A program made the translations under genes and the position numbers. 64,000 nucleotides of DNA from a virus (taxonomy: Duplodnaviria > Caudoviricetes), in IMG/VR virus record IMGVR_UViG_3300037067_027684, positions 182,685 to 246,684 of that record. The stretch is one strand, 5' to 3'. This document shows, in pieces, positions 30,860-51,716 of this stretch. The notes under the pieces are model-generated. The model did not search any database, was not told where the DNA came from, and was given only the letters and a program-made list of their open reading frames with translations. Numbering within the stretch: position 1 is the stretch's first letter; the number at the start of each line of letters is the position of its first letter.

Positions 30860-31798
30860 TTTGTAATCTCCTGTTTCCACCGTGGAAATGAAATTTATGG
30901 CTTCAAGCCAGCCTTATTCAAAGCTCGTGCGCAGATCAAGGCGAAATTCCGCTTTGCGAATTCAGCCACAAACTTGAAACCTTTCTTATCCTCAAACACA
31001 ATGTCCCACGAGATTGTAGGAGTGCATTTTCCACCAACCTCACAGTTTAGACATCGCTTCACTATGAACTTAGACTTCTTTGACTTAGCCATTTGACCTC
31101 CTAATACGTTGGAATTTCTATGAAACATCCGCTTGGAAGCTTCACCATTCCTCTCCGGTCACCCAACTCCGCCCACCTGTAAGCCTCAGATTCAGACTTC
31201 ACAGCAACCATAGCAATCTTGTCATTCAACAACGTCTGTTCACGATCAAGAACCAAACCCGAATGCCTTAAAGCCTTCTCCATTCCACCAAGACTCCATT
31301 CACCACCAACCTCATCCCATTGAACGCGCATCAGGCACCTCCAAAGTTCCCCGCAATGCACGAGCAAAATCTTCTTGAGTCCAACCACTAGCACGAAGCC
31401 GCTCAACCTCAGCTTCAGCCTCAGCCAGAACTTCAGCCTTGGTTAAAATCTTGCCCCACGGACGCTTGCACCTTGGACAACGCAGGATTCGATCCTTATC
31501 AGAATCAACTTGAACCAAACACCTTGGGCATCTCATTTCATTCTCCTTAGTACTTAGACAAATCGCAAACTTTGATCTCCCTTTGAAACCGTCGATGCTT
31601 GTATCCAGAGAATAAGCAACTGGATCTGACGCAAATCAAATAATCCAAAGCATCTCTGACTTCTAAAGAATCTGGGGCTTCAGATAGAATCTTAATCAAC
31701 TTTTCGCAAATTAGCGTAACTCCGCCACGTCCTTTGCCTCTGCTGCTTAGGAAGCGGTTCATTTTACTGTGTTTCAAGAATATTTCCTCCGTGGAAAC

Positions 31799-32193: not shown

Positions 32194-32267
32194 CAGGACT
32201 TGGGACCTGTCTCTTTCCGGACTGGAAAGAGAGTTCCTTACAGAGGGAATCACCCTCTGCCCTCGGT
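32194..32267 (-). ncRNA. twister ribozyme 1 (P5-type permutation), predicted cleavage 32240/32239
   Basis: cc-GA-GGG-[cagaggg/ccctctg]-UAA-gga-AC-[P3]-CAGG-UCCCAAGU-CCUG; all core elements present. Confidence 0.85.
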
Positions 32268-32759
32268 CTCATCCGGCTCCAACTCACGCTCACGATCAAT
32301 AAGCCTCTGATACAACGGATGAACCTCAGGCTCCACAGAACTAGTCACCGGAACCTTAGTCCCAGACGGAACCTTGCCAGTAAAGTAAAAATTCGGATCG
32401 CCATTCCCAATAAAAGCATCCTCATCCTCAAACGGCAAAGAACCACCAATAGAACTCCGATCAGCACTTGAAAAACCAGTCCACACCCCAATCGAACCAT
32501 CCCTCAACAACAGAACCTCAGACCACTCACCAATATCATTAACAGATTTTGCATTCAAAACCTGCTGAACATCCGCATCTCCCTCACTAAACCCATAATT
32601 CTTCACCATATTCGCAGCCACCAACTTCTTATACAAGGGTAACGCAGCTTCCTCATTGTCAAAAGCAATTGCATAAGGAGATTCATCCATCTCATCAACA
32701 ACCACAAATCGACCACCAGTCATCAGCGCCTCATCCAGTTTCTTGTCAAAATCAGCCAT
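32250..32759 (-). CDS. hypothetical protein; stop codon lies in the P1 loop of twister 1
   Basis: AGGAGGTG RBS before the ATG at 32759. Confidence 0.7.
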   Translation of the reverse strand: MADFDKKLDEALMTGGRFVVVDEMDESPYAIAFDNEEAALPLYKKLVAANMVKNYGFSEGDADVQQVLNAKSVNDIGEWSEVLLLRDGSIGVWTGFSSADRSSIGGSLPFEDEDAFIGNGDPNFYFTGKVPSGTKVPVTSSVEPEVHPLYQRLIDRERELEPDETEGRG

Positions 32760-34619
32760 CCAACACCTCCTCAACATTTATTTTTACTCCTTAAAGTTTC
32801 TTCAACACAGACTCCATGTCGGGCCTCAACGCAGAAGCCACACTAACAAACAATGGCTTCTCACCCTTCAGATGCCTCCCCAGAGTTGTCTGACGAATCG
32901 TGGACTCAAACTTCTTAATAATTTCAGAGAACACCGAATCCAAACCACGCTGAAGCTTGATATTCCTCATCTCAACAATCTTGCTCATGTCCCGTAAGAG
33001 AACCGAAACCAGACAACTCACAGCCACCGTCTCAGTATCAACCCACCCAGACGGAGCCGCAGCAACAAACTCATCAAGAACCTTGGCGTATTCCTTCGAT
33101 TTGCTCTTCTCCTTCAAAGCAGCCATTAATTCAGCGCTCTTCCCTTCCCACAATTTCTTGAGTTCTGCTTCATCCATTATTGTTTCCTTTTAAATTCGCC
33201 GTGGTGCTTAACCCAAATTGCAATGTACCGATCCCGATCAGCTTCAGTCCAACTTGGGTCAGGTCGAGCAAAACGCTCATCAAGGAATGCCCCGACTTCC
33301 CTCAGGTAGGCTAGTGATTTCTCCTTCTCAGCGGTGTGAGCAGGAGAGACTTCTGTGCCGCGACTATTGGTCATTCTTCCTCCTCATCAACTCTGCCAAT
33401 GAACATCATCAAACCCTCAAGGCTAACGATCTTATCGGCCTTGAAAGGCTGATTGAATTCTTCAACATCAGAGTTGACAATATCTCCACGAGCCTCAACC
33501 GCATCAACAAATTCACGAACCTCCTCTTCACTCGATCCTGTAACCCCGAAAACCCAGGGCTGATTCTCCATGTTATGGTAATGAACTCTGACACCCTTAG
33601 CGCAGTTAATCATTTCTCCTCCTTATTACTCTTCCTCATCTTCATCCTCGCCCTCACCATCCGGATCAGGCTCCTGAAAATTCAACGTCAAACGAGTCGG
33701 GTCATCTTCATTTTCATAATCCAAAATCTCCAACCCATCCTTCCGTCCCGCCACAAACTCCTTAACCTTTACCACCTCATCTGGCGTCAAGTTCGATACA
33801 GAAAATAACAATCACCACAAATAAGATCAAAATCATGCTGGGGCATGTACTCTGTATCAACCTTCTCCTTCCCAACCAGCTTCTTCAAATCCCGAAGAAT
33901 CTTAGCTCTCTCAAGCATACTTGTCTCCTCTCATTCGTAGGGGCACCACTGACACGCATTCTTAGCCAAACTCATTCCTTACCTCCTTTCAAACACCGAG
34001 TCGGTCGAATTCTGGAATTTCAACCCACACTGAGAGCAGAACCTCCGCGCCTCAGCACAACTAACAAACGGCAACTTATTCAACCGTTCACCACCCGAAT
34101 CCAACAACCACACGCCATCCTTCTCAGATGAAACCCGCACAACCTCTCCACTCTTCTGAATCAAATCCAAATTGCTCATTCTACTCATTGTACCCCTCCT
34201 TTCACAAAGTTCAATGCGTTGTCATTCATGTTGTTGAAGAATTCATTTATGTCACAACTGGGGATAACAGCCAAATCCTGAACAACCCCTTCACCAGTCA
34301 ACACCCCAACACTCTCACTAACCAATTCCCAACCCAAACAACCACAACCACGACCACCATGAACATCAAAACACTCAGCAACCAATCGACCAGCGCCGAA
34401 ACGAGTCTTCAAAAAATCAACAACCGAAGTATGCTTAGCGGGGCCAAAAACCAAAGCCCAACACCCATTAGGCTGATCACACCCACCAGAACCCTGAAAA
34501 ACAAAGAACCTCTGATTGACATCCAGAACCTTGCTCATCGTACCTAGAGCCTCAGTCTTAAACCAACTAAGTGCCTCTTCTCCAACAAAATTCTTCATCT
34601 TTTTCTTCCCTTTCAATGA

Positions 34620-34937
34620 TTAAGGTTTGGGTTTGGAGACATCGCACGTCTCCTTCAAAATTCGAGCACTCACAACCACGTACTCATCAGCAGGCAAACG
34701 CATCTGTTGGTAAACCCTGGCGAACAAATCCCCAGGTTGAGAATCACGAGCAATCTTCTCACCATCAAGAGTACACTTCAAAATCCCAATCCAATAATCC
34801 CGCGAATCACGTAATGCCTGACAATCCAACGAATTAGGATCACGCTTCACAGCATCGCAAATCCGAAGCGTATAACCAGAAATTCTCTCCTCCAGAGCAA
34901 CAACAAAAGCTTGACGAGCAATCTCGAAAGTTTTCAT
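34620..34937 (-). CDS. hypothetical protein directly downstream of twister 2
   Basis: GGAGG RBS overlapping the end of P4; ATG at 34937. Confidence 0.65.
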   Translation of the reverse strand: MKTFEIARQAFVVALEERISGYTLRICDAVKRDPNSLDCQALRDSRDYWIGILKCTLDGEKIARDSQPGDLFARVYQQMRLPADEYVVVSARILKETCDVSKPKP

Positions 34938-34945
34938 GAAACCTC

Positions 34946-35018
34946 CCTGGACTTGGGACCAGGACCCTTTCCACCGTGGAAGGGTGGCCTTACGGGGAGT
35001 CAACCTCCCCGCCCTCGG
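34946..35018 (-). ncRNA. twister ribozyme 2, predicted cleavage 34992/34991
   Basis: cc-GAGGG-[cggggag/ctccccg]-UAA-ggcc-AC-[P3]-CCUGG-UCCCAAGU-CCAGG. Confidence 0.8.
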
Positions 35019-35330
35019 TTACCGAACAGCATGAATCTCAAACCCCTCAACCGGCACATAAACCTCACGAGTCCTAAAAGACAACGCATGCTGCCACCCA
35101 TCAACATAAGGGACGCAAACATCCTGCTTCTCCAACCTGTGTAGAGCCTCCTTCGCCTCATCGTTATTCTCATCCCGCACTTCAGAACCGAGAACCAACT
35201 CCAAATCAGCAATAACCTCGTTCGCCTCCTCCTGAGTGCCAACAACCACCAAATTGCCGGTGTCAGGCGCATTCCCATCGTAGTCACCGTAAACCGCAAC
35301 CTTCTCCTCACAGACAACCTTCTTACCCAT
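35019..35330 (-). CDS. hypothetical protein ending immediately before twister 2
   Basis: AGGAGGTG RBS; TAA at 35021-35019. Confidence 0.65.
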   Translation of the reverse strand: MGKKVVCEEKVAVYGDYDGNAPDTGNLVVVGTQEEANEVIADLELVLGSEVRDENNDEAKEALHRLEKQDVCVPYVDGWQHALSFRTREVYVPVEGFEIHAVR

Positions 35331-36771
35331 TCAACACCTCCTTGACTTACATCCACTCACTCAACTTAAACCTCGGATCAACCTTCAACGCAGCCTTCAC
35401 AGCCTTAGCTGTCGCTACCCCACTCTTAGACTTCTTCCAAGCAGCCACACTCCCCCACTCACCACCAACCTCCTCCAAATGAGTAGCCTCCGCCTCAGCC
35501 GCATCAGCAAAAAGCTCAGCAACCTCAAGGTGATTCAACTCCTCAAAATGCTCAGCAATAGACGCACAACCATCAGCATGAATCCCAGAACCCTGATGCC
35601 ACCGAGACGCCTTCGCCGCAGCCTCAAAAGCCCTAACAGAAGGTTTCTTCGACTCAGACATTTCACACCTCCTAATCATTATCAGCCAAATACTGCTTAT
35701 TCAGACCCGCCAGAACATTAAGGATGTCAATGTGAAGCACATAAGCCTTCGCCCGATCATCCTTTTCAGGCAAATCCTGCCACTTCTCAAGCATCTTCGC
35801 AATCGAATCCAACTCACGAAATTCAAGAACAATCCTACCAGGATCTGCATCCGCAACGTAAATCTCCAACCTATTCAAGAAACCACGCATAACCTCAGCA
35901 TCATAATGCGACTTAGTACAAGCCCCAATAAGCCGTACATCCTCCCTCGAAAGCAACAATTCCGCCTTGGGAGTCCTGATAATCTTAGTCAGCGTCATTT
36001 GAACCTCCTAATTTTAAGGAACATAACTTTCTTCATTGTACTTCTCCATTTGCATCCTAATCATCAACCGAATAATCTTCTGAGCCTTAGGATCATTCGG
36101 AAAATGCAAAGCACCACTACCCTCACCACTCAACCACCAAAAACTCAACGGAATGCTGTTGACAGTAGTTCCAAGACAAGGCAAATGATCGTCAACCCAA
36201 TAATCAACAACCTTGACCCTAATCATCTCCTTGCCAGCTAAAGCCTTTCGAAGCCTCTCCTGCTCCTTCTCAGTCAACTCATTGAAAAACCGCTTGAATT
36301 TAGTGACCTTCATTACTCCCTCCTGGAAGTTCCAAATCCTCAACAACCTCACCACTCACACCCTTAACCCTCGGACGAGCAGCCATCCACCCACCCATCG
36401 GGTGCGGCTCCAATAGCCCCTGTCTCGCCATATCACATAAGAACTGCCCAACCAATTCACGATCAACCCACTTCTCCAGCCCAAAACCCGAATACTCAGT
36501 CGGAATCTGAGCCAGAAAACCAACCCCACTCCTCGCCCTCTCCAAATCCTCCTTCAACAACTCAGCAACCTGCCTCTTCACCCAAGCACGAGCAGCATTG
36601 TACGCAGGACGTGGGATAACCCCAGTAAACCGCTGCTGATGCAACCTCCGATTCACCCCACCATTCCGAAGTTGAAGCTGAGTCTGCCGAATCCTCAACT
36701 TATGCTCAGCAATCATCGCCTCAGCCTTCTCAGGTGGCAGCATCCTCCGACAAATCCCCTCAAAGTCCATT

Positions 36772-36987
36772 TCAACCTCCCTTCTTCACGTTGACAAACT
36801 TAATCGTAAAATCCTCCCCCTCAGGCAGAGATTCATCAACAATCATTTCAATCTGCCTCGTCAACTGCTTGACAGTCAATGGGGTCTTGCTCGCACCCCA
36901 ATACCACAATCCAACATTCCTCTGACTACTCTTGCCTGGGACCCTCGGTTTCACGAATGAACCAGCTTTGGTAACTATGACTACCAT
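36772..36987 (-). CDS. hypothetical protein downstream of twister 3
   Basis: GGAGG RBS embedded in a TTTCC-N5-GGAAA dyad; ATG at 36987. Confidence 0.6.
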   Translation of the reverse strand: MVVIVTKAGSFVKPRVPGKSSQRNVGLWYWGASKTPLTVKQLTRQIEMIVDESLPEGEDFTIKFVNVKKGG

Positions 36988-37019
36988 CTTATTTCCTCCA
37001 TGGAAAGAGAAAGTATTTT

Positions 37020-37086
37020 CTGGACTTGGGACCAGACCCACTTTCAGTGGGGGCCTTACACCCCAAAGGGGAGGGGTGCCCTCGGC
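37020..37086 (-). ncRNA. twister ribozyme 3, predicted cleavage 37058/37057
   Basis: gcc-GAGGG-[cacccc/ggggtg]-UAA-ggc-..-[P3]-CUGG-UCCCAAGU-CCAG; second pseudoknot partner imperfect. Confidence 0.7.
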
Positions 37087-37304
37087 TAATAACAATAACC
37101 ACCATGACTGTGAATAACATGCACCACCTTAAACCGACCCCCACCAACTTCCTCTTAGAAAAAGAAAGAAGAGGCCCATTCAAACCCAACAAAACCTCAC
37201 GCGGATCGTCACACTTATCAGCCTTATAAAAATCACCAACCCTCAACAACCTCCGAAACCTCCGATCCCTATAACTCCAAACCCCATAAGTCTTCCTCAT
37301 AACT

Positions 37305-37363
37305 CCTCCTTATTCACCACCAACCACACACCTCCTTATTCACCACCAACCACACACCTCCTT
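37305..37363 (-). repeat. 26-bp tandem repeat (about 2.3 copies), each unit an RBS plus a 5-codon ORF
   Basis: Minus strand reads AAGGAGG-tgt-GTG GTT GGT GGT GAA TAA twice. Confidence 0.8.
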
Positions 37364-38582
37364 TAACCCTTCATGCAATCACGACGACGCTTACGCCGCT
37401 CCCTCTTCTTACGCTGCTTACGCGTCATACCTCACCCCTTCTTAGACAACACCATCACCTCAGGCAAACTAAACTCAGGAACAGACACCCCCAACACAAG
37501 AACAGCAGCCCCCACCTCACCCTTCATCGTCAACACAGCAGCCACCCTACCCTTCATCGCCTCAGCACCAGCCCTGAAAGCAACCCGAGCAGCCTCCTTC
37601 AAATCCCCAACCCGAACCTCCACACCCTCCCTCATAGCCTCAAACGCCTCAACCTGCCCCCTCAACTCCGCAATCTCCCTCACCAAAACCTCACGCGAAG
37701 GAGAAACCCCAGCCCCCTCCACCCCCTCAGCCCGCAACACCCCCACCAACCCCTCCAACCCAACCCCCGAATGAGCAACCTCATCAGACCGACCCTCATA
37801 AGACAACTCCCACCTACCATCCCCAAACACAGCAATCTCAAAATCCCCAACAAAACCAGTCACAGGATCAGACTCATTCAAAACAACCAACAACTCACGC
37901 CCCCTCAACCAATCCAAAATCCTAACCCCCTCACACCCAAACTCACTCATCACACACCTCCACTCGCTTCGCTTGTGAAAAGACCAAAACCCCAATTTCC
38001 ACCACGGAAAAGACCAATCCCCTACCCCAAACCACCAACCACATAACAAAACCAACCACTAATCACCGAAATATTCGTACGAACCTCCTCAACCTCCAAA
38101 TCCCGAACCCAACTCAAACAACCAGGCAACTCAACCAACAACCCCAACTCCCCAGCCTCATACAACTTAAACAACTCATCCACATCCTCCACAGTAAGAG
38201 GAGCAGTAGAATAAACAGCAACAACCTCACCATCAGAATTATGAGGATTAACAATAGTCGTAATCGACACCACAGAACTCCTCACATCACCCATTCAACA
38301 CCTCCTCGCTTGTCCTCGCTTCGCTCGGAATTTCCTCCGTGGAAATAGAAACATCTTTCTATCGCCTCAAAACCAATCCCAAATTTAAAACTCTCAAACC
38401 CCGAAATCCCCTCACAAACTCACAGTACTTAGGCTAACCAATTCCCTCAATCCGAGAAATACCCCCTTAGAAATAATTCCTGAAAACCGAGTGGGTTATA
38501 ATTCGAGGTGTTCCACATGGTGATTTCTCATTCCTCACGAAGTATCTCAAAATTAAACTAATGTACTCATTGATACGAAAAG

Positions 38583-38618
38583 CCCCAACCCAGGAATTAT
38601 TTCCCCTGAGTTGGGGTT
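38583..38618. terminator. hairpin in a ~400-bp non-coding gap
   Basis: GCCCCAACCCAGG...CCTGAGTTGGGGT, followed by T residues on the minus strand. Confidence 0.45.
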
Positions 38619-39524
38619 AATTGACTATTAGAGTAGTTCTAGTTGTAGGAGAAACCATTCCAAAATTAATCAACATACACATCGAAAATATCTGATGCTT
38701 GAATCAAACGCTTGTTTGAATCACTCATTTGAAACAAGCACAAATCCCCCCTTTTTTAATCAGCGTTCCCGTCAACAAAGTGAGTAAGCTTAAACCGCCA
38801 AATCACCTCATCAGCAGTTCGGGACCAGAATCGGGGTTCCAGGATAGAATTCCTCACGATTTCGAGTAAATCCCCCTTCGTCCCAACCCACCTGAAATCG
38901 TACTCACCCCAACCAAGAGTGATTTGATTTCCTTCGTGGAAGTCCCTGATCATCTTCTTCATGTCTTCTGATTCTTCGTCCAAATCCAGCTCCAACTCAA
39001 GTGTTTCCTTGGTGAGATCGAGGATCGGACCCATTAGCCCAAGTGAGTTGGCTGGTTGGATGTTGTTGCTTTCTGTGCGGAAGACGAGAAAGAGATCTTC
39101 GCCTCCACGGTCGGTTCCGTGAACTAAGTCGCAGCTTACTTTGATTTTCATTGGCTTCCTCCCTTACTCCGTTTGGTTAGGCGTAGAGGATTGCGCAGAG
39201 TGCACGACCAGAAGCACTAACGATTTGAGACTCCTCGTCATTCCCACGTGTGACTTCAAGGAGATGAACACCACTTTGAGGTGAAGTTAAAAGCCTGACT
39301 GTAGCCTTGTACCTGTCTTTCCTCTCGTCGCCATCATTCCAACATTGGACGGTTGCTACCTTGCCCTTGATTTTCAGGAGTTTGATGTTGAAATCTAACT
39401 CCATTTTGCCGTAACTGTTGGCTCTTTGGATCACTTCTTTGAGGATGTTCATTTGGCTCTCCTTGCTGTCTGTAATCGTTTTCATCTGACCGACTTCGGA
39501 TTCAGATGTGTTTATCAGCTCTTG

Positions 39525-39806
39525 CTATTTGCTGGGGTAGACTGCCTTGCACTTGGTGCAGCGGTAAACCTCAAAAGGATGTTTCTTGATACGGTAAATC
39601 CTCTCACCGCACCTGCAGAGTCCTTTGGGGCGTCTTACCTCAAAGACTTGTTTCAAATCAGGTGGGTCGAGTGGTGGCATCCAGGCGTTGAAGAGTAAGC
39701 TCATGATTGCTTTGCCTTCGGGCATTTTACTTAGGATGACTCGGGCGTCTTTCAGGTCTTCTGGTTTGAAGGTGTTTGTGACATCTTCGATTTTTAGTGG
39801 TTCCAT
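39525..39806 (-). CDS. hypothetical zinc-ribbon protein downstream of twister 4
   Basis: CRCG...CTKC; GGAGGAG RBS directly after P4. Confidence 0.65.
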   Translation of the reverse strand: MEPLKIEDVTNTFKPEDLKDARVILSKMPEGKAIMSLLFNAWMPPLDPPDLKQVFEVRRPKGLCRCGERIYRIKKHPFEVYRCTKCKAVYPSK

Positions 39807-39818
39807 TGGCTCCTCCCT

Positions 39819-39887
39819 CAGGACTTGGGACCTGTGAGCTTAAATGCTCAGTTCCTTACAGAGAGGTTTTAGCCTCTCTGCCCTCGG
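39819..39887 (-). ncRNA. twister ribozyme 4, predicted cleavage 39858/39857
   Basis: cc-GAGGG-[cagagagg/cctctctg]-UAA-gga-AC-[tgagc/gctca]-CAGG-UCCCAAGU-CCUG. Confidence 0.85.
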
Positions 39888-39888
39888 T

Positions 39889-40212
39889 TTACTTTTTGAG
39901 TTGGGCCATTGCAGCTTTGAGGAGTTCCTTCTTGGCGGCTTTCTTCTCAGCCTTCCGCTGGTCACTGCATTTGGTGCAGGTGTCGATTTGGAAGAGGTCG
40001 GAGGTGAAGACCCAGCGGGAGTCGTCGCAGCAGAGTTGGCAGCTGATTTTCACTTTGTACTTGCCTGCGGCTTCATCGAAAGTGAGGGTGTCGCTGAAGG
40101 CGTGGGGGTATTTGTCCAGGTTGGCTTTGATTTTCTCCAACTGGAGGTCCTTCTTGGCTTTGATTTTCTCGGCGAGTGCGAGAATCTCGGGTGTGACTTC
40201 TGTCTGTGGCAT
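39889..40212 (-). CDS. Lys/Ala-rich zinc-ribbon protein, paralogue of 43831..44169
   Basis: CxxC...CxxC; shares EVTPEILA, KYPHA and VFTSDLFQIDTC; AGAGGAG RBS before the ATG at 40212. Confidence 0.75.
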   Translation of the reverse strand: MPQTEVTPEILALAEKIKAKKDLQLEKIKANLDKYPHAFSDTLTFDEAAGKYKVKISCQLCCDDSRWVFTSDLFQIDTCTKCSDQRKAEKKAAKKELLKAAMAQLKK

Positions 40213-40277
40213 GGTCTGTCTCCTCTGCCCCGTTGGGGCGTGTGGGTTTGGGCGGGTTCTCCCGCCTCTCCCGTCCT

Positions 40278-40305
40278 GTGGCGCTCCCTTGGCTCTCTGG
40301 GGAGG
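40278..40305 (-). promoter_or_regulatory. bipartite promoter-like motif, copy upstream of 39889..40212
   Basis: Plus strand GTGGCGCTCC-N7-CTCTGGGGAGG; one of five similar copies. Confidence 0.5.
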
Positions 40306-40529
40306 TGCAATTTGGTTGAAGTGGTGAGTCACCTCCTGTACCCCCGCTTGTTGGTGGCGGTTGGTTGGTATTCTGGGGATGGTTTGAATAGCAAGAGTTG
40401 ATAAATTCAATCAGAGACGATTCCCTACCTTAAGGTTCCTGACAGCAAGGGTTGCTAAATTCCAGCTTGGAAAGGGTATCCCGCTTGGACGTTCACGGAT
40501 ACCCTAGCTTCTCCCCGTTCGGGTGGTGA

Positions 40530-40560
40530 CTGGGAGGAAGAGAAACAACTCTTCCTCCCA
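40530..40560 (-). terminator. perfect hairpin just after the 40566..40937 stop
   Basis: TGGGAGGAAGAG-loop-CTCTTCCTCCCA. Confidence 0.5.
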
Positions 40561-40565
40561 TTATG

Positions 40566-40937
40566 TTAACGAACCAAATAGCGACGGAATTCTTCTGAAA
40601 CTTTCTTTCCGTCAGTTCCGATTGCATCTTCTCTGGTGACTTTCTTTCCGTCAACTCCGATTGACCATCGGTCGGAGCAATCACTTCCTGCGTTCGGAGT
40701 TTGTTTCTTTTGTTCGAAGGCTTTTTGGAAGATTTCGATGGGGTAGACGGCTTCAAGGCACGCCGTTAAATCAAGGCGGTTGAGGAAGTACCAGCTTGCG
40801 TCAACCTCGTCGTACCCGTTGATTTTTCGGGCTTCGTTTTCTTCGGCTGGGAAGTCGAAGATTTTGACGTAGTGTCCGTCCCAGTTGGTTTTGTTGCAGA
40901 TTGCAACGTAGGTTCCTGCTTTGGTGTAGTTGTGCAT
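40566..40937 (-). CDS. hypothetical protein downstream of twister 5
   Basis: GGAGG RBS after P4; C-terminal IGxDGKKV duplication. Confidence 0.6.
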   Translation of the reverse strand: MHNYTKAGTYVAICNKTNWDGHYVKIFDFPAEENEARKINGYDEVDASWYFLNRLDLTACLEAVYPIEIFQKAFEQKKQTPNAGSDCSDRWSIGVDGKKVTREDAIGTDGKKVSEEFRRYLVR

Positions 40938-40948
40938 TGGGCCTCCCT

Positions 40949-41075
40949 CCAGGACTTGGGACCTGGTCGCTTTCCGGTGTGGAAAGCGAGTTCCTTACAA
41001 GGGAGAGGGATGACTTTGGGCACCCATGTGTTGATGGGCTTTGCCGTTAGTTCTTTCGCTCTCCGTTGCCCTCGG
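40949..41075 (-). ncRNA. twister ribozyme 5 with enlarged P1, predicted cleavage 40997/40996
   Basis: cc-GAGGG-[caacggagag...ctctcccttg, ~50-nt loop]-UAA-gga-AC-[tcgctttcc/ggaaagcga]-CCAGG-UCCCAAGU-CCUGG. Confidence 0.75.
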
Positions 41076-41311
41076 GACTTCCTTAATGCGTTTTCACTTT
41101 TCTGCCCTCTGTGCCTCTTTGCTCCTAAACTCACAAAAAGAATTCAAAATGTTTTGGAGTTTACTGAGTGCCCGGTGGTCGTGTCACTTGTTCACCCCTT
41201 TCGGTTTGCTTCGCTTGCTTAATTTGTGGGAATAGGGAGGGGGGCACTGCAGTGCCCCACCAGTGAGGCGAAGCTCCGCCACAAGCGGCCTCTAGCCTCA
41301 ACTAAAAAGGC

Positions 41312-41485
41312 AGACCAGAGAGGGATTCGAACCCTCGTCTCCCCCATCACCCAACCCTCACCTGCAAGTGAGTCTTGAGTGTGGTTTCACAGTTCCACTT
41401 TGGAAGGCCAGGTTGCTTGCAGACATCCTGTTTTCTGTTGGTGGATTTTCCTGTAGGGCGCTCTAGACCACTGAGCTATCCGGCC
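41312..41485 (-). tRNA. tRNA-like RNA with a 107-nt structured insert replacing the anticodon loop; no assignable anticodon, CCA not encoded
   Basis: Acceptor GGCCGGA/TCTGGTC, D-arm GCTC-AGTGGTCTA-GAGC, anticodon stem CCCTA/TGGGG, variable loop GAGAC, T-arm GAGGG-TTCGAAT-CCCTC, discriminator U. Confidence 0.85.
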
Positions 41486-41534
41486 AAAATCTGTGGGGAA
41501 GGCCCGCAATCTGCGTCCCTTCCCCGCTCCGGTC

Positions 41535-41560
41535 GTGGCGCTCCGCTCCGCTTGGGAGGG
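41535..41560 (-). promoter_or_regulatory. bipartite promoter-like motif upstream of the tRNA-like RNA
   Basis: GTGGCGCTCC-N6-CTTGGGAGGG; about 35 nt nearly identical to 44287-44321. Confidence 0.5.
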
Positions 41561-41901
41561 ACGCTCGGGAGCCGTTTCCTTTGCTCGACCTCAAGCCGAT
41601 TCCTCAGCGAGGGAGCGAATCTTAGTGAGCGGCAGAATTCACCTGAGTATTCCCAGGACTGTTGGTCATGAGCCAATGGGGAAAGGCAGCTCTACGACTG
41701 GCTGGCTATTCCATTGACGCCTGAACCCTGCTCACTCCCCCTTCCACCTCTTAATCATCGACCCAGTGCAAATGGGGGTGGTTGGGTGCCCTTCGGGATT
41801 TGCACTCCCGTCAGGTCAAAACGTTAACAGCAAATTCCCAAACTCCGGTTCGGCTTTGATCTTAACCCGCCAGCGCAAGGCGGAGAACTAGCCCGTCAAC
41901 C

Positions 41902-41992
41902 CCAGGATTTGGGACCTGGTCTCGTCCACCAAGATTTCCTCGGTGGAATCGAGCTTCCTTACAGCGGAGAGTAACCTCCCCGCTGCCCTCGG
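41902..41992 (-). ncRNA. twister ribozyme 6 (variant loop UCCCAAAU, possibly attenuated), predicted site 41961/41960
   Basis: cc-GAGGG-[cagcgg../..ccgctg]-UAA-gga-ag-[long P3]-CCAGG-UCCCAAAU-CCUGG. Confidence 0.6.
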
Positions 41993-42057
41993 TAAACACG
42001 ACTTTCAATAGAGGAGCGCACTCCGGCCCCTCGTTCAACCACGATAGTGGCACCCCC

Positions 42058-42318
42058 TCACTTCCCTAGGGAGTCAATAACCCCCAGAATCCGCACCTCG
42101 TGAGCGTTCAACAAATCCAACGCCCCAAGGACGTTCATCATATCGTCCTTCGACGCCGAACAAATGGCATAATTACGAAGGATCTCCCCACCGATCTGCT
42201 CCACAACCCGCCTCTGCCTTGCGGTATTCTCCAGAATCCGGATCTTCATCTTCTCAATGTGTGGGTTCTGGATTACCCGCACTTCTTTCACTGTCTGAGG
42301 AATAGCTTTGACTAGCAT
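42058..42318 (-). CDS. hypothetical protein between twisters 7 and 6
   Basis: GGAGG RBS directly after P4 of twister 7. Confidence 0.65.
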   Translation of the reverse strand: MLVKAIPQTVKEVRVIQNPHIEKMKIRILENTARQRRVVEQIGGEILRNYAICSASKDDMMNVLGALDLLNAHEVRILGVIDSLGK

Positions 42319-42329
42319 GTAACCTCCCT

Positions 42330-42404
42330 CCAGGACTTGGGACCTGGACCTTTCCGGAGTGGAAAGGTGTTCCTTACACCCCTGATTTTAAGGGGTGCCC
42401 TCGG
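42330..42404 (-). ncRNA. twister ribozyme 7, predicted cleavage 42376/42375
   Basis: cc-GAGGG-[cacccct/aggggtg]-UAA-gga-AC-[acctttcc/ggaaaggt]-CCAGG-UCCCAAGU-CCUGG. Confidence 0.85.
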
Positions 42405-42756
42405 GATTCATGAAATCAACCTTCCACTTCAGAACCTTCTGGTGACCGTCGAACTCGTCGGTGTACTTGAAGACCCACGTCTTCTGTCTCAACATGAAAT
42501 CCTTGAGGAAAATGAGCGTCCCCTTGAAATCCCTGTTGGTGTGGCAGCTCCTGCCTGCGCCGAAGTGGATGAAGGCGTAGTCACCTTGGACGACGGTGTT
42601 TTGGCTGAGGAACCACCATGCGAAGTAGCCTTGGTTGTCTTTTGGTGCTGTTTTCAAGTCTTTCACTGTGGCCAGCAGGTTTTGGAGTGCTGGGATGTTG
42701 AGGATTGACTTGTGGAATGGGACAACTCCATTCCTGATTTCGATGCAGTTACTCAC
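42388..42756 (-). CDS. hypothetical protein; stop codon lies in the P1 loop of twister 7
   Basis: GAGG RBS; TAA at 42390-42388. Confidence 0.65.
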   Translation of the reverse strand: MSNCIEIRNGVVPFHKSILNIPALQNLLATVKDLKTAPKDNQGYFAWWFLSQNTVVQGDYAFIHFGAGRSCHTNRDFKGTLIFLKDFMLRQKTWVFKYTDEFDGHQKVLKWKVDFMNPEGTP

Positions 42757-42774
42757 TGCGTTTCCTCCCTGGAA

Positions 42775-43017
42775 CTAGGGGATTGTCACTAGTTCCGTGT
42801 GGAACTTCGAATTGCCGCCACCGATTCCCTCCCTCACGCGAAGGATTTGGGTTGGTGTTGCGCAATTCTTGCAGGTTGTTAACCCCAATTCCAGACGTTC
42901 GGTTGGGATTACCTCTCCACAAGTGCAGACTCGTCCTTCCCGTTTGAGTTGGATGAGTTTTTGCAGCTCGTCCAGCTCTTTGGGTGAGAGTCCTGCGAGG
43001 ATCTTTCTTATCTCCAC
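42775..43017 (-). CDS. TraR/DksA C4-type zinc-finger protein
   Basis: CTCGEVIPTERLELGLTTCKNC matches C..CGE.IP..RL....C..C. Confidence 0.65.
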   Translation of the reverse strand: MEIRKILAGLSPKELDELQKLIQLKREGRVCTCGEVIPTERLELGLTTCKNCATPTQILRVREGIGGGNSKFHTELVTIP

Positions 43018-43030
43018 TTCTCACCTCCCT

Positions 43031-43108
43031 CCAGGACTTGAGACCTGGTTACTTTCCGGAGTGGAAAGTAGTTCCTTAAGAGGGGAAAGGAATCCCCTCC
43101 CTCTCGGA
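43031..43108 (-). ncRNA. twister ribozyme 8, predicted cleavage 43078/43077
   Basis: tcc-GA-GAG-[P1]-UAA-gga-AC-[P3]-CCAGG-UCUCAAGU-CCUGG; the pseudoknot covaries (CUC/GAG instead of CCC/GGG). Confidence 0.9.
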
Positions 43109-43110
43109 CT

Positions 43111-43245
43111 TCACCGATTCCCGTCAGACTCCTGCATCCGCTCACGAATCCGATCCTTGATCTCCTGACGGGTTGGGCCGTGAGATCGGTGCTTCGACCT
43201 CCCACGAATCCTCAACCCCTCACGCAACGCATCTGCTCTGCTCAC
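43111..43245 (-). CDS. 44-aa Arg-rich small protein ending just before twister 8
   Basis: AAGGAG RBS, GTG start, MSRADALREGLRIRGRSKHRSHGPTRQEIKDRIRERMQESDGNR; not in the track. Confidence 0.5.
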   Translation of the reverse strand: MSRADALREGLRIRGRSKHRSHGPTRQEIKDRIRERMQESDGNR

Positions 43246-43271
43246 GTTCTGCTCCTTTTCCAAGGTGGAAA

Positions 43272-43562
43272 TCAACTCCTGCCAGCCGAATCCCTCACTT
43301 CCCCATCAGCGTACCGAACACAAAAATGCAAAAGCTTGTAGACGTGCATGTTCCCCTCGCCATCCAAGCGAGCAACCTTGATCCCCTCAACACCAGGAAC
43401 ACGAAACCAGAACATCCGGAGATCGTGAAACACGTACTCCGTCTCCTTCTCGTTCAGCGGAATGAACGCCGCCAAACGATCCGTGTGAAACATCTCACAC
43501 AGAGCCTTTTCCACATCCTTCGTGGTAAGGTGTGTTGCAATCGTCACAGCAACTGGGACCAT
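43272..43562 (-). CDS. hypothetical protein downstream of twister 9
   Basis: GGAGGTG RBS directly after P4. Confidence 0.65.
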   Translation of the reverse strand: MVPVAVTIATHLTTKDVEKALCEMFHTDRLAAFIPLNEKETEYVFHDLRMFWFRVPGVEGIKVARLDGEGNMHVYKLLHFCVRYADGEVRDSAGRS

Positions 43563-43575
43563 CGAACACCTCCCT

Positions 43576-43650
43576 CCAGGACTTGGGACCTGGCCCCTTT
43601 CCTCAGTGGAAAGAGGGGTCTTAAGCAGGGACGGAACCCTGCTCCCTCGA
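43576..43650 (-). ncRNA. twister ribozyme 9, predicted cleavage 43623/43622
   Basis: tc-GAGGG-[agcaggg/ccctgct]-UAA-ga-..-[P3]-CCAGG-UCCCAAGU-CCUGG; P2 covaries (tc/ga versus cc/gg). Confidence 0.8.
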
Positions 43651-43790
43651 ACAGCTTAGTGTCGAACAGCTAACTACCGCATGGCTCAACCCTCAATTGC
43701 CTTGCTTCGCTCGTCTAAGAAAGCCTCCAAGCGAATGCCGAGCTAAACCCCTCTTCAAGCGAATGTTGAGGCTTTCCACCCTGGAAACAG

Positions 43791-43830: not shown

Positions 43831-44169
43831 TTACTCAGCCGCCTTGTCCGCAGCGATCTTGGCCATCGCCGCCTTGATCAGCTCCTTCTTCACCGCCTGC
43901 TTCTCCTTCTTCGCCTCGCCCGCGCAGTCCACGCAGGTGTCGATCTGGAAGAGGTCGCTCGTGAACACACGGCGCGTCTTGCCGCACTTCGTGCACTCGA
44001 TCTCGACCGAGTACTTCTTGGCCTCGGGGTTGTACGTCAAGGTGTCCGCCTTGGCGTGCGGGTACTTGCTCAGACCTTCGCGGGTCTTGGCAAGCTTCGC
44101 ATCCTGCTTGGCCTGCAGCTTCTTGGCCATCGCGAGGATTTCCGGCGTGACTTCCACTTCGTTTGCCAT
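43831..44169 (-). CDS. Lys/Ala-rich zinc-ribbon protein, first gene of the leftward array, with GC-rich codons
   Basis: CTKC...CVDC; paralogue of 39889..40212; AGAGGAG RBS. Confidence 0.8.
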   Translation of the reverse strand: MANEVEVTPEILAMAKKLQAKQDAKLAKTREGLSKYPHAKADTLTYNPEAKKYSVEIECTKCGKTRRVFTSDLFQIDTCVDCAGEAKKEKQAVKKELIKAAMAKIAADKAAE

Positions 44170-44234
44170 CTTCCTGCTCCTCTGCCCCTTTGGGGCGGTT
44201 CGTGTTGGCGGTTCGTTCCGCCTGCACCCAGCTC

Positions 44235-44406
44235 GTGGCGGCTCCTGCCGCTCTGGGGGAGGCCCGCTGCCCGCTCGTGCGGTGCCCTGCGTCCTTCCCC
44301 GCTCCGGTCGTGGCGCTCCGCCCCGCTTTGGGGGAGGCGCGCTGCTTCCGTCGCGTGTGTCCTTCTCCTGCGCTCAGGTTGTGGCGCTCCGGTCCCCTCT
44401 GGGGGA
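44235..44406 (-). promoter_or_regulatory. three tandem copies of the bipartite promoter-like motif
   Basis: GTGGCG(G)CTCC-N5/6-CT(C/T)TGGGGGA at 44235, 44310 and 44381. Confidence 0.55.
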
Positions 44407-44519
44407 CATCCTCCAAAGAGCGCGGGGATGCCACAAGATAGGGATTGTACCCCCGTAGAAGTATGGCGGGGAGGGGGAGGGGACCAAGGGGGAGGGGGGT
44501 CGGCCCTCCTTTCAGCGAG

Positions 44520-44646
44520 GGGTATTTTTCCATGGCGATTCTTTTTAGGAGAAAGTATTTTGTGTTTGTGGGTGAACGAGGTTAAATATTTTACCTCCTT
44601 TTGGGTGTGCTTCTTTGGGAGGGTATTTTTCCATGGCGATTCTTTT
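44520..44646 (+). repeat. 26-bp exact direct repeat, 101 bp apart
   Basis: GGGTATTTTTCCATGGCGATTCTTTT at 44520-44545 and 44621-44646. Confidence 0.85.
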
Positions 44647-46118: not shown

Positions 46119-46745
46119 GTGGGTAGGTTGTCTGATGTTGTGGGGAAGTTGCGTTTTATTGAGAGGGGTTCGGATTTTTATTTTAATGTTATTGGGTGTG
46201 GTGTTTCTCAGGTTGAGTTGGATAGGTATATTGCTAATAGGTTGTTGAAGTCTTCTTCGCCTTCTGAGATTTCGGTTGATAGGTTGCGTGATGATATTTC
46301 GTTTTTGTTTGGGTTGGGTGGGGTTATTAGTGGTGGTTGTGCGTTGGCTTTTTTGCATAATACTCATCGTGCTAAGGATGTGGATTTTTATTTTAATGAT
46401 GAGGTTGCGTTTGTTAAGGCTTATTTGAGGACTTATGATAATCCTTTGGTTGATGTGTGTTTTTATTTTGATGAGCCGCATGAGTTACATGATATGTCGT
46501 TGGTTATGTGTAATATTTATAGTGATAGGGTGGAGACTACTCCTCAAGCGCAGTTGGCTTTGGATTCTGGGGTGTCGGAGTTGTATCCTGAGAATGTTAT
46601 TTATCCTGATAGGACTATTATGAGGATTATTAAGTATCATAAGCGTACTGGTGTTAGGTTTAGGGGTGAGCAGGTTTTGTTTATTTGTTCTATTTTTGGT
46701 GTTGATCAGGGGTTATGTAGGGATGGGTTGGGGTGTTGTGTGTGA
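46119..46745 (+). CDS. Pol-beta-superfamily nucleotidyltransferase-like protein
   Basis: ISGGCAL...KDVDFYF (GG..DxD) and C-terminal RIIKYHKR. Confidence 0.6.
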   Translation: MGRLSDVVGKLRFIERGSDFYFNVIGCGVSQVELDRYIANRLLKSSSPSEISVDRLRDDISFLFGLGGVISGGCALAFLHNTHRAKDVDFYFNDEVAFVKAYLRTYDNPLVDVCFYFDEPHELHDMSLVMCNIYSDRVETTPQAQLALDSGVSELYPENVIYPDRTIMRIIKYHKRTGVRFRGEQVLFICSIFGVDQGLCRDGLGCCV

Positions 46746-46795
46746 TTGGTGTTGTTCGGATGGGGGTACGGAAAAACTTCCTCTATAGATAAGAT

Positions 46796-47286
46796 GTGAT
46801 TATTTCTGAGTGTAATATTTCTTTGCCTTTTGTGTTGTTTGCTGATTGTGAGGTGTCGTATTGTGGGAGGGCGGAGTCTTCGTTAGTTAGGGGTAAGTAT
46901 TTGGTTGTGCGTAAGGTTGATGGTTCGTTTCTTATTATGGGTGGGGTGTTGGTTACTCCTTTGAATTATCAGGGTAGGGGTGGGGTGTTGGTGTTGGAGG
47001 GTGATGTGTTGGTGTGTAGGAGGTTGGGGGAGGTGTTGAGGGTTAGGGTGTTTGGGGTTGAGTTTTTTAGGGTGTTGGGGAGGTGTTTGAGGAGTTTCAG
47101 ACTCCTGTGGGGTGTGTTGATTTGTTGGTTGTGTCTGTTGATGGGGTGTATCATGTGGTGGAGTTTAAGAGGCGTAGGGCTAGTTTGTCTGCTGGGTCAC
47201 AGGTTGATAGGTATTGTGGTTATTTTAGGGGTTTGGTGGTTTGGCTTTGGTTTTATTTTCACATGCTTTCCTGGTTTGTTCTATGA
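46796..47286 (+). pseudogene. nucS: endonuclease NucS/EndoMS split by a frameshifting deletion near 47080
   Basis: N-domain CEVSYCGRAESSL..YLVVRKVDGS..PLNYQ in one frame; nuclease motif EFQTPVGCVDLL..VVEFKRR..QVDRY in another; linker and C-terminus missing. Confidence 0.7.
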
Positions 47287-47460
47287 GTTCTATCATTTCT
47301 TGTCGAGCTTGTCCTTGGGTGACGTATATTGGTCCGGTGAGATATATGATTTGTTCGTCTAATTTGAGTGATCCGTAGTATTTTCCGTTTATTTCTGGCG
47401 TGTCGCTGTAACATGGTGTTATTTCTTTGGTTAGGATGGTGTGTATTATTTGGTTGGGGA

Positions 47461-48015
47461 TCATAATTCTAGGTGCCTTTCTCCTGGTTCAGGTAATTCT
47501 TGTGAATTTCCAACTATGTGATTCCATTCGATTTCGCCTATTGCTCGTTTTACTTTTTCTATGTTTTGGAGTGCTTTTTGATAGTCTTTGGTTTTATTTT
47601 GTTCTTCTATTAATTGGAGTTGGTATGTTTTGGTTATTCCTTCTTGGGAGGCTTGTATTGATTCTACTTGGGATCTGAGTGCTGAGTTAGTGACTGTTAG
47701 GGCGGCGATGTTTTGGTTGGCTTGTCGAAAATTGGTTTCTGATTCTTCGGCTAATTTCTTCAATTTTTCGTATTGTGCTTTGAGGTTCTTTAATTCTTCT
47801 TGGGCGAGTTGTTCGGTGTATGCTGGGTCTTCTTGTAGTATGATTCTTGGTTTTCGGACTATTGATCTTTGGTTTACGTATGTGGTTGTTCCATTTATGT
47901 TTTGTGGTGTTGTGAATTCGTCTATGACATCTTCGTAGATTATTTCTTTTATTTCTAATGATGGGGCGCAGTATTGGAGTTGGGATGGGTTGTCTAGGTA
48001 TTGATATTTTGGCAT
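47461..48015 (-). CDS. hypothetical coiled-coil protein
   Basis: Heptad-rich C-terminal half. Confidence 0.6.
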   Translation of the reverse strand: MPKYQYLDNPSQLQYCAPSLEIKEIIYEDVIDEFTTPQNINGTTTYVNQRSIVRKPRIILQEDPAYTEQLAQEELKNLKAQYEKLKKLAEESETNFRQANQNIAALTVTNSALRSQVESIQASQEGITKTYQLQLIEEQNKTKDYQKALQNIEKVKRAIGEIEWNHIVGNSQELPEPGERHLEL

Positions 48016-48365
48016 TTGTTTATCCTTAGCAGAAGATTCTGAAGGGTGTTAGTATGATGTCTTTGATTTTGTTTGGTGGTGGGTTTATGTTTCTGAGTAC
48101 TTCTGGGTGGGTGTAATATTTGTTGTCTGGGTGCTGTTGGATTTGGGTTATTTGGTATTGGAGGGTTTTGATTTGTTTGTTTTTGACTTCGCTTCTGGCT
48201 TTGGTTATGACGTAGAGTATTAGTAGGAGTATTGCGATATGTGGTCTCCAGGGTGCTGGGATGTAATTGAAGAGTTCTTGTATCATTCGGTCCTCCGATT
48301 ATCCTAGGGAGTAGGGTATGCCTCTAGGAGTATCTGTTATGTTTTTATACCGCAAAGATAAGGGT

Positions 48366-48620
48366 ATGAAAGATTTTAATTTTGATAAGATTGAGAAGTT
48401 TGGTTTTCGTAAGCCTAAGAAGGATTATGGTGATTATGATCAAGAGCAGTTGTTGATGGGTATTGAGGTTGAGAAGGAGCATGTTGATGATGAGGAGGTT
48501 GCGGTTATTATTGCTGCTCATCATTTGGATGAGATTAGGGATTATTATTCTAGGTTGAAGAGGATGGAGGATGAGGCTAAGTCTGTTGATAAGATTGCTG
48601 AGTCTTTAGAATCTGCGTAG
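48366..48620 (+). CDS. DUF5661-like protein
   Basis: QLLMGIEVEKEH..VAVIIAAHHLDEIRDYYSRLKRME. Confidence 0.7.
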   Translation: MKDFNFDKIEKFGFRKPKKDYGDYDQEQLLMGIEVEKEHVDDEEVAVIIAAHHLDEIRDYYSRLKRMEDEAKSVDKIAESLESA

Positions 48621-49070
48621 TCTATTGGTTTTGGGTTTTTCTTGTTCGTCTGGGTCCATTTGTTTTAGTTTGATCGAGTCAATTACTTCTTCTCTTGGTG
48701 CGAAGAATACTGCTCCGTCAACTACGTTTAGTAGTATGTCTCCTTTGAGGATTCCGTCGTATATTACTTTGATTCCTTTTGCGAAGGCTATCATTTGGTA
48801 GTGGGCGAGTTTTTCTTTGTTTGTGAATTCGTTTATTTCTGGGATTTCTTCGGTTGAGTTTACATGTTCTTGGAGATTTTCTATTTGGGTTTTGAGGCCA
48901 AGGAACCAAGATCTTAGCATGTTTATTTCGTAGTCTGAGTGGGGTCCTAGTTTGGCTATTGTGCGCCAGTCTGAGATTGAGTTGTAGATTGCTAGTCCTT
49001 CTTCTTCTGTGATATATGGCATATGTCGCTCCTCTGTGTATTATATCGAATTAGAATATTATGGAAATTA

Positions 49071-49871
49071 TTAGTTTAATGGTTCTTGGTCTGTCATTGC
49101 TTCTAGTTCTTCTATCTCTTGGGCGGATGGGCCTTGATCTTCTTCAGCTATTTCATAGGCGATAATTATAGCTAATCGACCTCCGCCAAGATCTTCTTGG
49201 ATTACATAATAATTTCCTTGTTTCCTTACATGTAGGACTTCTACGCTAACTAATTCAAAAATTTCGCTAACTTTGTCACTAATCATTTTACCAACGAGTT
49301 GATCGTCCGCGTCAGTTGGTAGTGCAATGTTAATTTTTGTTTGAGTGAAATGTTGATTGTCGTCAACTTCGTCCCAAATTTTTAATACATAAGTTTTCTG
49401 GATTTGTTGTACACTTGGTTCTTGTGGTTCTAAATTTTCTATTAGCAATCCATTGTTGAATTTGATGTCTTCGGTTAGGCAATTTGCTATTTTACTGATT
49501 TCTTCCATTCCACGGACACTTTGCCCTTTTACTGATTGGACTTGTCTGGCTTCTGCTTGGAGTCCTTTGATCAATTGAGCGAGTTCTTGTAATTTCTTGG
49601 CTTTGGCTAATGAAAGAAGGTTCTGTCTTAATTTACCAATTTGTGGGTCACCTTCATATGTTTTGAATAGTCCGTCTATGAGTATTGCTGTGTCTTTGGC
49701 TCCTGGGGTGTTTGCTATCATTGCTATTTTCTTTGGCTCTTTGGCATATAACTTATCCCAGGTATTTCTATCGAGGTATCTGAATCCACTCGATTGGCCT
49801 GTTAGTTTGCCCCACATATCTCCTAATCCTTCTTTTAGGGCTTCTTCTAACAGAGTTTCTAGTTGTGTCAT
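49071..49871 (-). CDS. hypothetical protein, possible internal virion protein
   Basis: LLEEALKEG and IANCLTEDIKFNNG motifs. Confidence 0.6.
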   Translation of the reverse strand: MTQLETLLEEALKEGLGDMWGKLTGQSSGFRYLDRNTWDKLYAKEPKKIAMIANTPGAKDTAILIDGLFKTYEGDPQIGKLRQNLLSLAKAKKLQELAQLIKGLQAEARQVQSVKGQSVRGMEEISKIANCLTEDIKFNNGLLIENLEPQEPSVQQIQKTYVLKIWDEVDDNQHFTQTKINIALPTDADDQLVGKMISDKVSEIFELVSVEVLHVRKQGNYYVIQEDLGGGRLAIIIAYEIAEEDQGPSAQEIEELEAMTDQEPLN

Positions 49872-50304
49872 GGATGATCCCCTATAGTCTAACTCTATTT
49901 TTGTACAAATCCAAGCTCTTGCATAACTTCTAGATTAGCTTCTTTATGAGACTTTGGCCCATTGCCTTTCATTAGATAGGCACCTAGTTTAGATAGTTTC
50001 TGTCCAACCCAATAGGAGAATCTTTGACGGAGTGTCTTTTTCTGATGCCATTTCCAGTATATGAGGTCACGGATGGCAACATATATTTCTTCGATTTGTT
50101 TGTCGCGTTCGTCTTGGGCACTCATTGTTAGAGTATGTCCGCAGGAGAGAACTGGATCATCTCTGTCATAATCGATAATTGATTGTTCAGTGTCGCAGAA
50201 GGGGCATTTGGTCGTTCTCATGTGTTTCTCCTCCTGCTTTAGGATATCCTTCTAGTTGTCTCTGTATAGATTTTTGTTTGGTTGAATAGCAAACATATTG
50301 TGAG

Positions 50305-51697: not shown

Positions 51698-51716
51698 TCC
51701 ATCATATTTTTGACAA

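Follow-up and report, generated by a model that had tools for sequence, protein, structure and literature searches.

The window analysed here, a stretch of 64 kb, is the last part of a 246,684-bp IMG/VR virus record (IMGVR_UViG_3300037067_027684; G000 marks coordinates of the whole record). Between 32.2 and 43.6 kb, a leftward gene run carries nine minus-strand elements which, judged from sequence and predicted fold, are type-P5 twister ribozymes. A 15-bp dyad, TTTCC-N5-GGAAA, referred to below as the box, is found at the tip of helix P3 in 7/9 copies (1, 2, 5, 6, 7, 8 and 9). The genes flanking the ribozymes are small, and those scanned could not be placed convincingly in a Pfam or PHROG family; cultured phages gave no DNA match to the array. 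The record is ~91% complete, appears to have been cut from a 372-kb contig, and carries the IMG/VR label provirus. Since no tyrosine integrase was found in the record at this completeness, and proteins near-identical to its own were found on contigs of 250 kb and 372 kb, the source is probably a trimmed jumbo phage; the integrase result also suggests that the phage is probably lytic. The nine copies are listed below (P, helix; L, loop; T1 and T2, contacts of loop L4; ORF, open reading frame; RBS, ribosome-binding site; bits, Rfam score).

32194..32267, minus strand: twister copy 1; 40 bits; cut 32240/32239; P1 contains the end of the upstream ORF (32250); P3 box at 32214-32228
34947..35019, minus strand: twister copy 2; 33 bits; cut 34992/34991; upstream stop 5 nt 5' of GAG; box (one mismatch) at 34968-34982
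37020..37086, minus strand: twister copy 3; 38 bits; cut 37058/37057; P3 without box, a box adjoining downstream over the RBS (36992-37006); one-pair T1; missing from two other assemblies
39819..39888, minus strand: twister copy 4; 44.3 bits; cut 39858/39857; stop 6 nt 5' of GAG; no box in P3
40950..41076, minus strand: twister copy 5, with long branched P1 insertion; fold z -4.5 and partial Rfam hit; cut 40997/40996; box at 40971-40985
41903..41993, minus strand: twister copy 6; 30.6 bits; cut 41961/41960; L4 G-to-A; box (one mismatch) in the 5' arm of an elongated P3, at 41935-41949; next element RNA-like and non-coding, no RBS
42331..42405, minus strand: twister copy 7; 36.7 bits; cut 42376/42375; P1 contains the end of the upstream ORF (42388); box at 42351-42365
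43032..43108, minus strand: twister copy 8; 39 bits; cut 43078/43077; compensated T2 pseudoknot (CUC/GAG); P2 of 3 bp; box at 43053-43067
43577..43651, minus strand: twister copy 9; 33.6 bits; cut 43623/43622; weak P2 with a U-A pair; minimum-free-energy fold unlike the ribozyme fold; box at 43598-43612

Identification of the ribozymes and of a P3-bearing subtype

The initial annotation had proposed nine minus-strand twister copies in the P5-type permutation, with the Rfam models as a means of checking them. Using cmscan, Twister-P5 (RF02684) was found on the minus strand at 8/9 sites (30.6-44.3 bits, E 6e-6 to 0.019), four of which score above the RF02684 gathering score of 37.6 bits. Copy 5 was missed as a full hit due to an insertion of ~90 nt in P1; a partial hit is present, and the copy folds into the common P2/P1/P3/P4 layout (z -4.5). 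The permutation, in which P1 is closed by a loop and the free ends lie between P4 and P2, was seen both in the Rfam alignments and in the folds, and the nine cut positions given initially proved exact to the base. The exact P4/L4 12-mer occurs nine times, every time on the minus strand within 32.2-43.6 kb. A tenth twister (copy 10) is situated outside the window at G000 161909-161974; a relaxed twister descriptor run over the record gave no copies beyond these ten, and no other ribozyme class was detected in the record by Rfam.

The U^A cut site, the next A, and the catalytic G of GA-G are kept in 10/10 copies, a conservation that argues for ribozyme activity. The T2 pseudoknot (3 bp, L4 with GGG) is present in all copies, and both of its strands have changed together in copies 8 and 10; the CUC/GAG double change of copy 8, as well as the covariation of P2 in copy 9 (the U-A pair), had been noticed in the initial annotation and were seen again. 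Its claim that the loop GU is matched by AC applies to copies 1, 4, 5, 7 and 8, in which T1 has two pairs, and probably to copy 2. It fails for copies 3 and 9, which have CC and a single T1 pair, the latter being true of copy 10 and most relatives too, and for copy 6, where the L4 G is lost and T1 is damaged; copy 6 is possibly slow or inactive.

Compared with the RF02684 model, the elements have a P2 of only 2-3 bp, an extra inserted P3 hairpin, and a T1 often reduced to one pair. The insertions lower the RF02684 scores, and the P3-bearing subtype mostly stays near or below the gathering threshold. A pattern describing this subtype matched 70 metagenome stretches, which indicates that it is a recurring natural form. 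The 113 distinct P3-bearing copies compared have a CCC/GGG T2 in 103 cases and a CUC/GAG T2 in 8, and their P4 shows eight fully Watson-Crick pair sets; P2 is 2 bp long in 81 of them and 3 bp long in 29, counts biased to short P2 by a search pattern that favoured CC/GG. No published description of a subtype with 2-3 bp in P2 and an added P3 was found, but it may be contained in the alignments of Roth 2014 and Weinberg 2015. Because the P3-bearing short-P2 subtype scores so close to or below the Rfam threshold, twister counts in phages are probably too low.

Position of the ribozymes between genes

In agreement with the initial annotation, the stop codon of the upstream ORF lies at or overlaps the ribozyme start in five of the nine copies (1, 2, 4, 7 and 8), and seven end at a GGAGG RBS. 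The placement was then evaluated on 130 distinct twister copies from other contigs: an upstream stop falls within -25..+5 nt of the core in 76% of copies versus 17% at random positions (mode, 5 nt before the core), an RBS and start follow P4 by no more than 30 nt in 49% versus 10%, and both are found in 40% versus 2.4%. The closely spaced, same-strand ribozymes of the window flank single genes or short blocks. The predicted cuts would yield pieces of 415-2800 nt, the proximal ones comprising one or two genes and the distal ones four or more.

These pieces had initially been ascribed to a single polycistronic early RNA. Processing of mRNA is still the best reading of the array, but the substrate is probably not one transcript: terminator-like hairpins at 43792 (43826-43792) and 38583 suggest that the region spans more than one, and the term "early" had been an inferred one. 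Promoters were not in excess in the region (10 found vs 10.8 expected). An 8-mer, AGCGAAGC, is present in four intergenic gaps (43704, 41208, 38318 and 37966, minus strand); three copies exist in the sister strain described below, and it was not seen in most relatives.

A uniform insulator effect like that of RiboJ, an engineered hammerhead, had been proposed for the array. However, opening of the RBS after cleavage was predicted for copies 4, 5 and 7 only (3/8), hence a general unmasking of the RBS was rejected, and folding predictions alone do not support a uniform insulator. Cleavage might instead destabilise the downstream RNA and thereby provide quick shut-off or graded expression, possibly gated by ribosomes that stop on the first nucleotides of the ribozyme. 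Such an outcome has a precedent in glmS, whose self-cleavage ends in RNA degradation (PMC6765202). The upstream stop, most frequently 5 nt before the core, is still 5-8 nt from it where genes have been swapped, and P2 would therefore be covered by a ribosome terminating there. The stop position may nevertheless reflect tight packing alone, and the predicted 3' cleavage products start with hairpins and have short unpaired 5' ends of 1-7 nt; destabilisation as the main role seems rather improbable to us. Whether a 5'-OH end protects or dooms an RNA depends on host nucleases, and with glmS cleavage triggering decay (PMC6765202), the "decay-resistant 5'-OH" of the initial annotation has to be made conditional on the host.

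Conservation and gene turnover in related phages

Across copies 4-8, two other assemblies are identical to the window, and in the longer of them, L269, the identity includes copy 9; as they match without a difference, the array is not an assembly artefact. In a sister strain (~95% identical), all nine ribozymes are kept and the neighbour genes of copies 1, 2, 3 and 8 are changed, which means that the modules outlast their neighbours. After a swap of the upstream gene in this strain, a stop is still found 5-8 nt before the core. The sister strain has also gained a further ribozyme, the tenth of its array, together with an inserted gene, and the 3' end of this ribozyme is identical to that of copy 8. 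Contigs of related phages contain ~11 twisters each, and the flanked genes are not constant between strains or relatives.

This turnover raises the question of whether gene shuffling by recombination, with the modules as cassettes like the PeSL elements (PMC2839356), is the main reason for their retention and cleavage is secondary. Strain differences do break at the edges of copies 1, 2, 3 and 8, the new gene did arrive with a new copy, and gene order does vary among the related phages. On the other hand, most strain breakpoints are located away from twisters, the deletion that removes copy 3 is bounded by neither ribozymes nor boxes, and the copies, while diverging, retain a catalytic core and pairing for which recombination has no need. 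A role mainly as cassettes is thus judged to be distinctly unlikely; PeSL-style shuffling is a plausible by-product and not the likely reason for keeping the catalytic core.

The box within P3 and at other gene starts

The dyad in P3 is absent from the initial annotation. TTTCC-N5-GGAAA has 23 exact sites in the record, and other spacers of 0-15 give 0-2 each; with five further sites carrying one mismatch the total is 28, of which 18 are intergenic by the ORF set used. There are 21 stand-alone boxes, all at 98-227 kb of the record, many of them directly before a start codon or over an RBS and some inside ORFs. Those in the ribozyme region and its surroundings are as follows (no strand is assigned to the sites).

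43773..43787: stand-alone box after the terminator-like hairpin (43826-43792)
43257..43271: stand-alone box immediately 5' of an RBS, at a gene junction
42761..42775: stand-alone box (one mismatch) over the RBS of a 122-aa gene
40459..40473: stand-alone box (one mismatch), intergenic
38928..38942: box (one mismatch) within a 131-aa ORF
38331..38345: stand-alone box 36 nt 5' of a start codon
37996..38010: stand-alone box 45 nt 5' of a start codon
36992..37006: stand-alone box over the RBS, 3' of copy 3
31783..31797: stand-alone box, intergenic
30874..30888: stand-alone box directly before the RBS of a 366-aa gene

Five other viral records (26-235 kb) contain 0 or 1 box each, and a scan of viral contigs produced only matches resembling chance. 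In contigs of related phages, linked by shared ORFs, the box was found in 57 of ~70 twisters. Compensated versions were not seen among these ~70 clade twisters, whereas the base pairs just below the box covary freely; consequently, the box sequence itself is under selection. No published description of the motif was found in the literature searched for it in its written spellings.

The box may act as an RNA hairpin, with a phage protein that would bind at the P3 tip or the RBS and repress translation, protect the 5' end, or switch the ribozyme. By predicted fold it forms the top of a stable hairpin in P3, and several stand-alone copies overlap or abut an RBS. In contigs L125 and L168 it is situated in an insert of P1 in place of P3, again inside the ribozyme, and the P3 boxes are strand-biased (A at position 6 in 30/35, G at position 9 in 30/35). 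This bias, however, may have been inherited from a single ancestor. Moreover, the stand-alone sites speak against an RNA hairpin: in 20 of them flank pairing is at chance with no extended stems, half have a low hairpin probability, A or T occupies positions 6 and 10 in 18/20 each but these pair in only 6/20, and positions 7 and 9 carry C and G symmetrically (21/40) though unable to pair. Changes at outer positions break the pair instead of giving G-U, and some sites lie inside ORFs. Recognition of the box as RNA is, in our view, unlikely. We consider it fairly probable that a protein binds the box as DNA and that the dyad is an operator-like site of a putative dimeric phage regulator controlling these genes as a set.

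Other functions of the box and candidates for its binding protein were also considered. A promoter was rejected, as in several copies only 3-5 nt separate the box from a start codon, which leaves no room for a leader. A DnaA box or parS was rejected despite some resemblance, since the flanking bases do not fit; neither ParB nor sigma-70 region 4 was found in the record (91% complete). The first gene of the run was rejected as the binding protein because it also occurs in a phage without box or twister, and the one small helix-turn-helix gene found (G000 100115-100414) has no box in the 160 nt upstream of it and few homologues.

The box of copy 6, situated on one arm of a longer hairpin, may be a relic. 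In three contig groups (L135/L140/L149, L122/L163/L170 and L116/L127/L145) twisters of the same subtype have conserved P3-tip sequences of their own, and stand-alone copies were not seen for two of these three motifs.

Other features of the gene run and the record

43831..44169, minus strand: gene that opens the leftward run; zinc-ribbon-like product of 112 aa, with a paralog at 39889-40209
44170-44520: repeats rich in GC that separate divergent gene runs, at a GC-skew flip; one 42-nt unit recurs at 41518-41559 and is absent there in the sister strain
41770-41904, minus strand: 135-nt RNA-like element directly 3' of copy 6; its ends pair, and it has a T-loop-like hairpin; ~98% conservation in the sister strain; not hit by Rfam
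41312-41485, minus strand: tRNA-like body with intact acceptor, D and T arms, the anticodon loop being replaced by a structured insert of ~100 nt; also present in the sister strain; Rfam matches the T arm only
36989-37300, minus strand: 103-aa ORF spanning copy 3; another frame has TAG 5 nt before the ribozyme
9504-10529, minus strand: RNA ligase gene, PF09414 with PHA02142 OB-fold
G000 301-374, plus strand: tRNA with CUA anticodon (amber suppressor-like)
G000 46545-53304, outside the window: cas genes of Type I-E, with annotated homologues matching Cas7
G000 53377-53830, outside the window: CRISPR array of ~8 repeats; its spacers gave no match among the loci examined

Homologues of the 112-aa zinc-ribbon-like gene also head the twister arrays of related phages, with up to three copies in L150; the predicted model of the protein (pLDDT 88) gave nothing informative in fold searches. 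The 103-aa ORF through copy 3 is possibly a frameshifted gene or a G-run error. An arrangement like that of copy 6, in which a long-P3 twister is followed by a non-coding stretch instead of an RBS, is present in L150 (~2930-3200) and L277 (~8420-8597), and the stretch is common to both phages. A call of an intron type similar to the tRNA-like body was obtained in L154.

Proposed mechanism

From the sequence, predicted structure, placement and conservation of the modules, we infer that they cleave in vivo and that this affects expression. The junction module would comprise the upstream stop codon, a type-P5 twister, and an RBS. The twister would fold during transcription and cut at U^A by its known chemistry, leaving an upstream piece with the P1 hairpin and a cyclic phosphate at its 3' end and a downstream piece that starts with a 5'-OH and a hairpin-rich leader of 51-70 nt before the start codon. 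Transcripts of the small genes would in this way be cut without proteins into units of 0.4-2.8 kb, the stability and translation of each being independent of its neighbour, so that genes could be gained, lost, or swapped. In this clade, the dispensable P3 carries the same 15-bp dyad that is found alone at other gene starts, and the dyad would be the DNA site through which a dimeric phage regulator governs these genes as a set. That the modules cut RNA co-transcriptionally and uncouple neighbours in a region of fast turnover, the box adding control by a phage protein, is the reading we favour with moderate confidence on sequence and modelling grounds.

A more specific version, in which a single junction element combines a ribozyme with a regulator site carried in its dispensable P3, is put forward tentatively and with some doubt. 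If it is true, a DNA-bound protein would halt RNA polymerase within P3, ahead of the synthesis of P4, blocking both the next gene and completion of the ribozyme, and an RNA-bound version would represent a natural protein-controlled twister. Either would place phage ribozyme arrays under a regulator and provide a first handle on their function.

RtcB joins 5'-OH and cyclic phosphate ends, and every piece between two ribozymes would have ends of this type; the pieces might accordingly be ligated into circular or shuffled mRNAs, and the phage does encode the PF09414 RNA ligase listed above. Ligases of the PF09414 type, however, need a 5'-phosphate, and the gene is 22 kb away from the array and common in phages (342 records). 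Neither RtcB, Rnl1, nor a clear polynucleotide kinase was found in the record, which is 91% complete, the positive control for Rnl1 having given no signal. Furthermore, phage hammerhead clusters showed no circles (PMC3088659), and ligation is regarded as very improbable.

Several observations weigh against co-transcriptional cutting under the control of a phage protein. Several copies deviate from tested twisters in their short P2 and one-pair T1. Short twister helices tolerate single mutations poorly (PMC9901934), so the copies could differ in cleavage rate and some could be slow. Ribozymes are missing from most gene junctions of the region, and copy 3 is part of an 830-bp stretch deleted in two assemblies, with deletion ends that have no relation to ribozymes or boxes. 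Neither twister nor box is present in a related phage of 235 kb, and a box-binding protein was not found among the candidates, namely the first gene of the run and the helix-turn-helix gene.

Comparison with known systems

Cutting of phage RNA at gene junctions is well known from RNase III, which processes T7 and SPO1 early RNA into units with defined ends; it is a host protein and leaves a 5'-phosphate. The closest likeness in the RNA itself is the type-P5 twister as summarised in two later sources (RF02684; Roth et al. 2014 via PMC6765202 and PMC10085705): the order P2-GAGGG-P1-UAA-P2-T1-P4 is the same, as are the catalytic G and A, the T2 pseudoknot, the L4 sequence, and the cut site. P3 is absent from the Rfam model, and a P2 of 3-4 bp and a T1 of 2 bp would be expected, as opposed to 2-3 bp and often one pair here.

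The initial annotation named no described phage with an array of comparable density and placement, but the array is not unique. Clusters of hammerheads in prophages flank single genes or short blocks, and cutting of transcripts to operon- or gene-length mRNAs was proposed for them in 2011; three clusters of phage hammerheads were shown to cleave in vitro and in E. coli (PMC3088659). A 2019 review repeats the polycistron-cutting idea for twisters, names phages, and calls the idea unproven (PMC6765202). As for density, a 16-base scan of viral contigs led to the record of L055, with 11 over-threshold twister-P5 in 6.5 kb (L055 2972-9496), and to another with at least 10. L055, L024, L028 and L034 are unrelated viral contigs with 10-12 canonical twister-P5 each, without P3 or box. 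Like the clustered hammerheads, the array consists of several self-cleaving RNAs flanking genes of varying identity; it differs in the ribozyme class, in having nine copies instead of the triple arrangements tested there, in its embedded dyad, and in belonging to a probably lytic jumbo phage and not to prophages (PMC3088659).

The PeSL cassettes of T4-type phages are, like the modules, small regulatory repeats between the non-essential genes of a variable region, with strain breaks at the cassette (PMC2839356). They consist of a sigma-70 promoter and a terminator, whereas the modules described here would be catalytic and show no excess of promoters. The box shares with the L5-type stoperators of cluster A mycobacteriophages (PMC9283540) a copy number of >20 over the genome and a mostly intergenic position, many stoperators being located in short intergenic gaps; stoperators, however, are asymmetric 13-mers in fixed orientation bound by a known monomeric repressor, while the box is a symmetric dyad and occurs inside ribozymes. 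Theta ribozymes of gut phages (PMC10879173) are small phage ribozymes beside RNA genes, just as copy 6 precedes an RNA-like element, but they are hepatitis delta virus-like and cut at tRNA 3' ends, and the copy 6 cut lies 58 nt upstream of its element.

In summary, the array represents a known ribozyme class in an arrangement of a known kind, and it is real, dense and well placed. Why bacteria and phages put self-cleaving ribozymes between small genes has been an open question since 2011 (PMC3088659, PMC6765202), and this locus is a good test system for it, as it combines nine copies, natural weak variants among them, with a sister strain whose neighbour genes were swapped and with strains that lack one copy. 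In the literature searched, no description was found of a dyad within a twister P3 or of ribozyme cut sites belonging to a regulon, and it is membership in a regulon that the embedded dyad suggests for the cut sites of this array.

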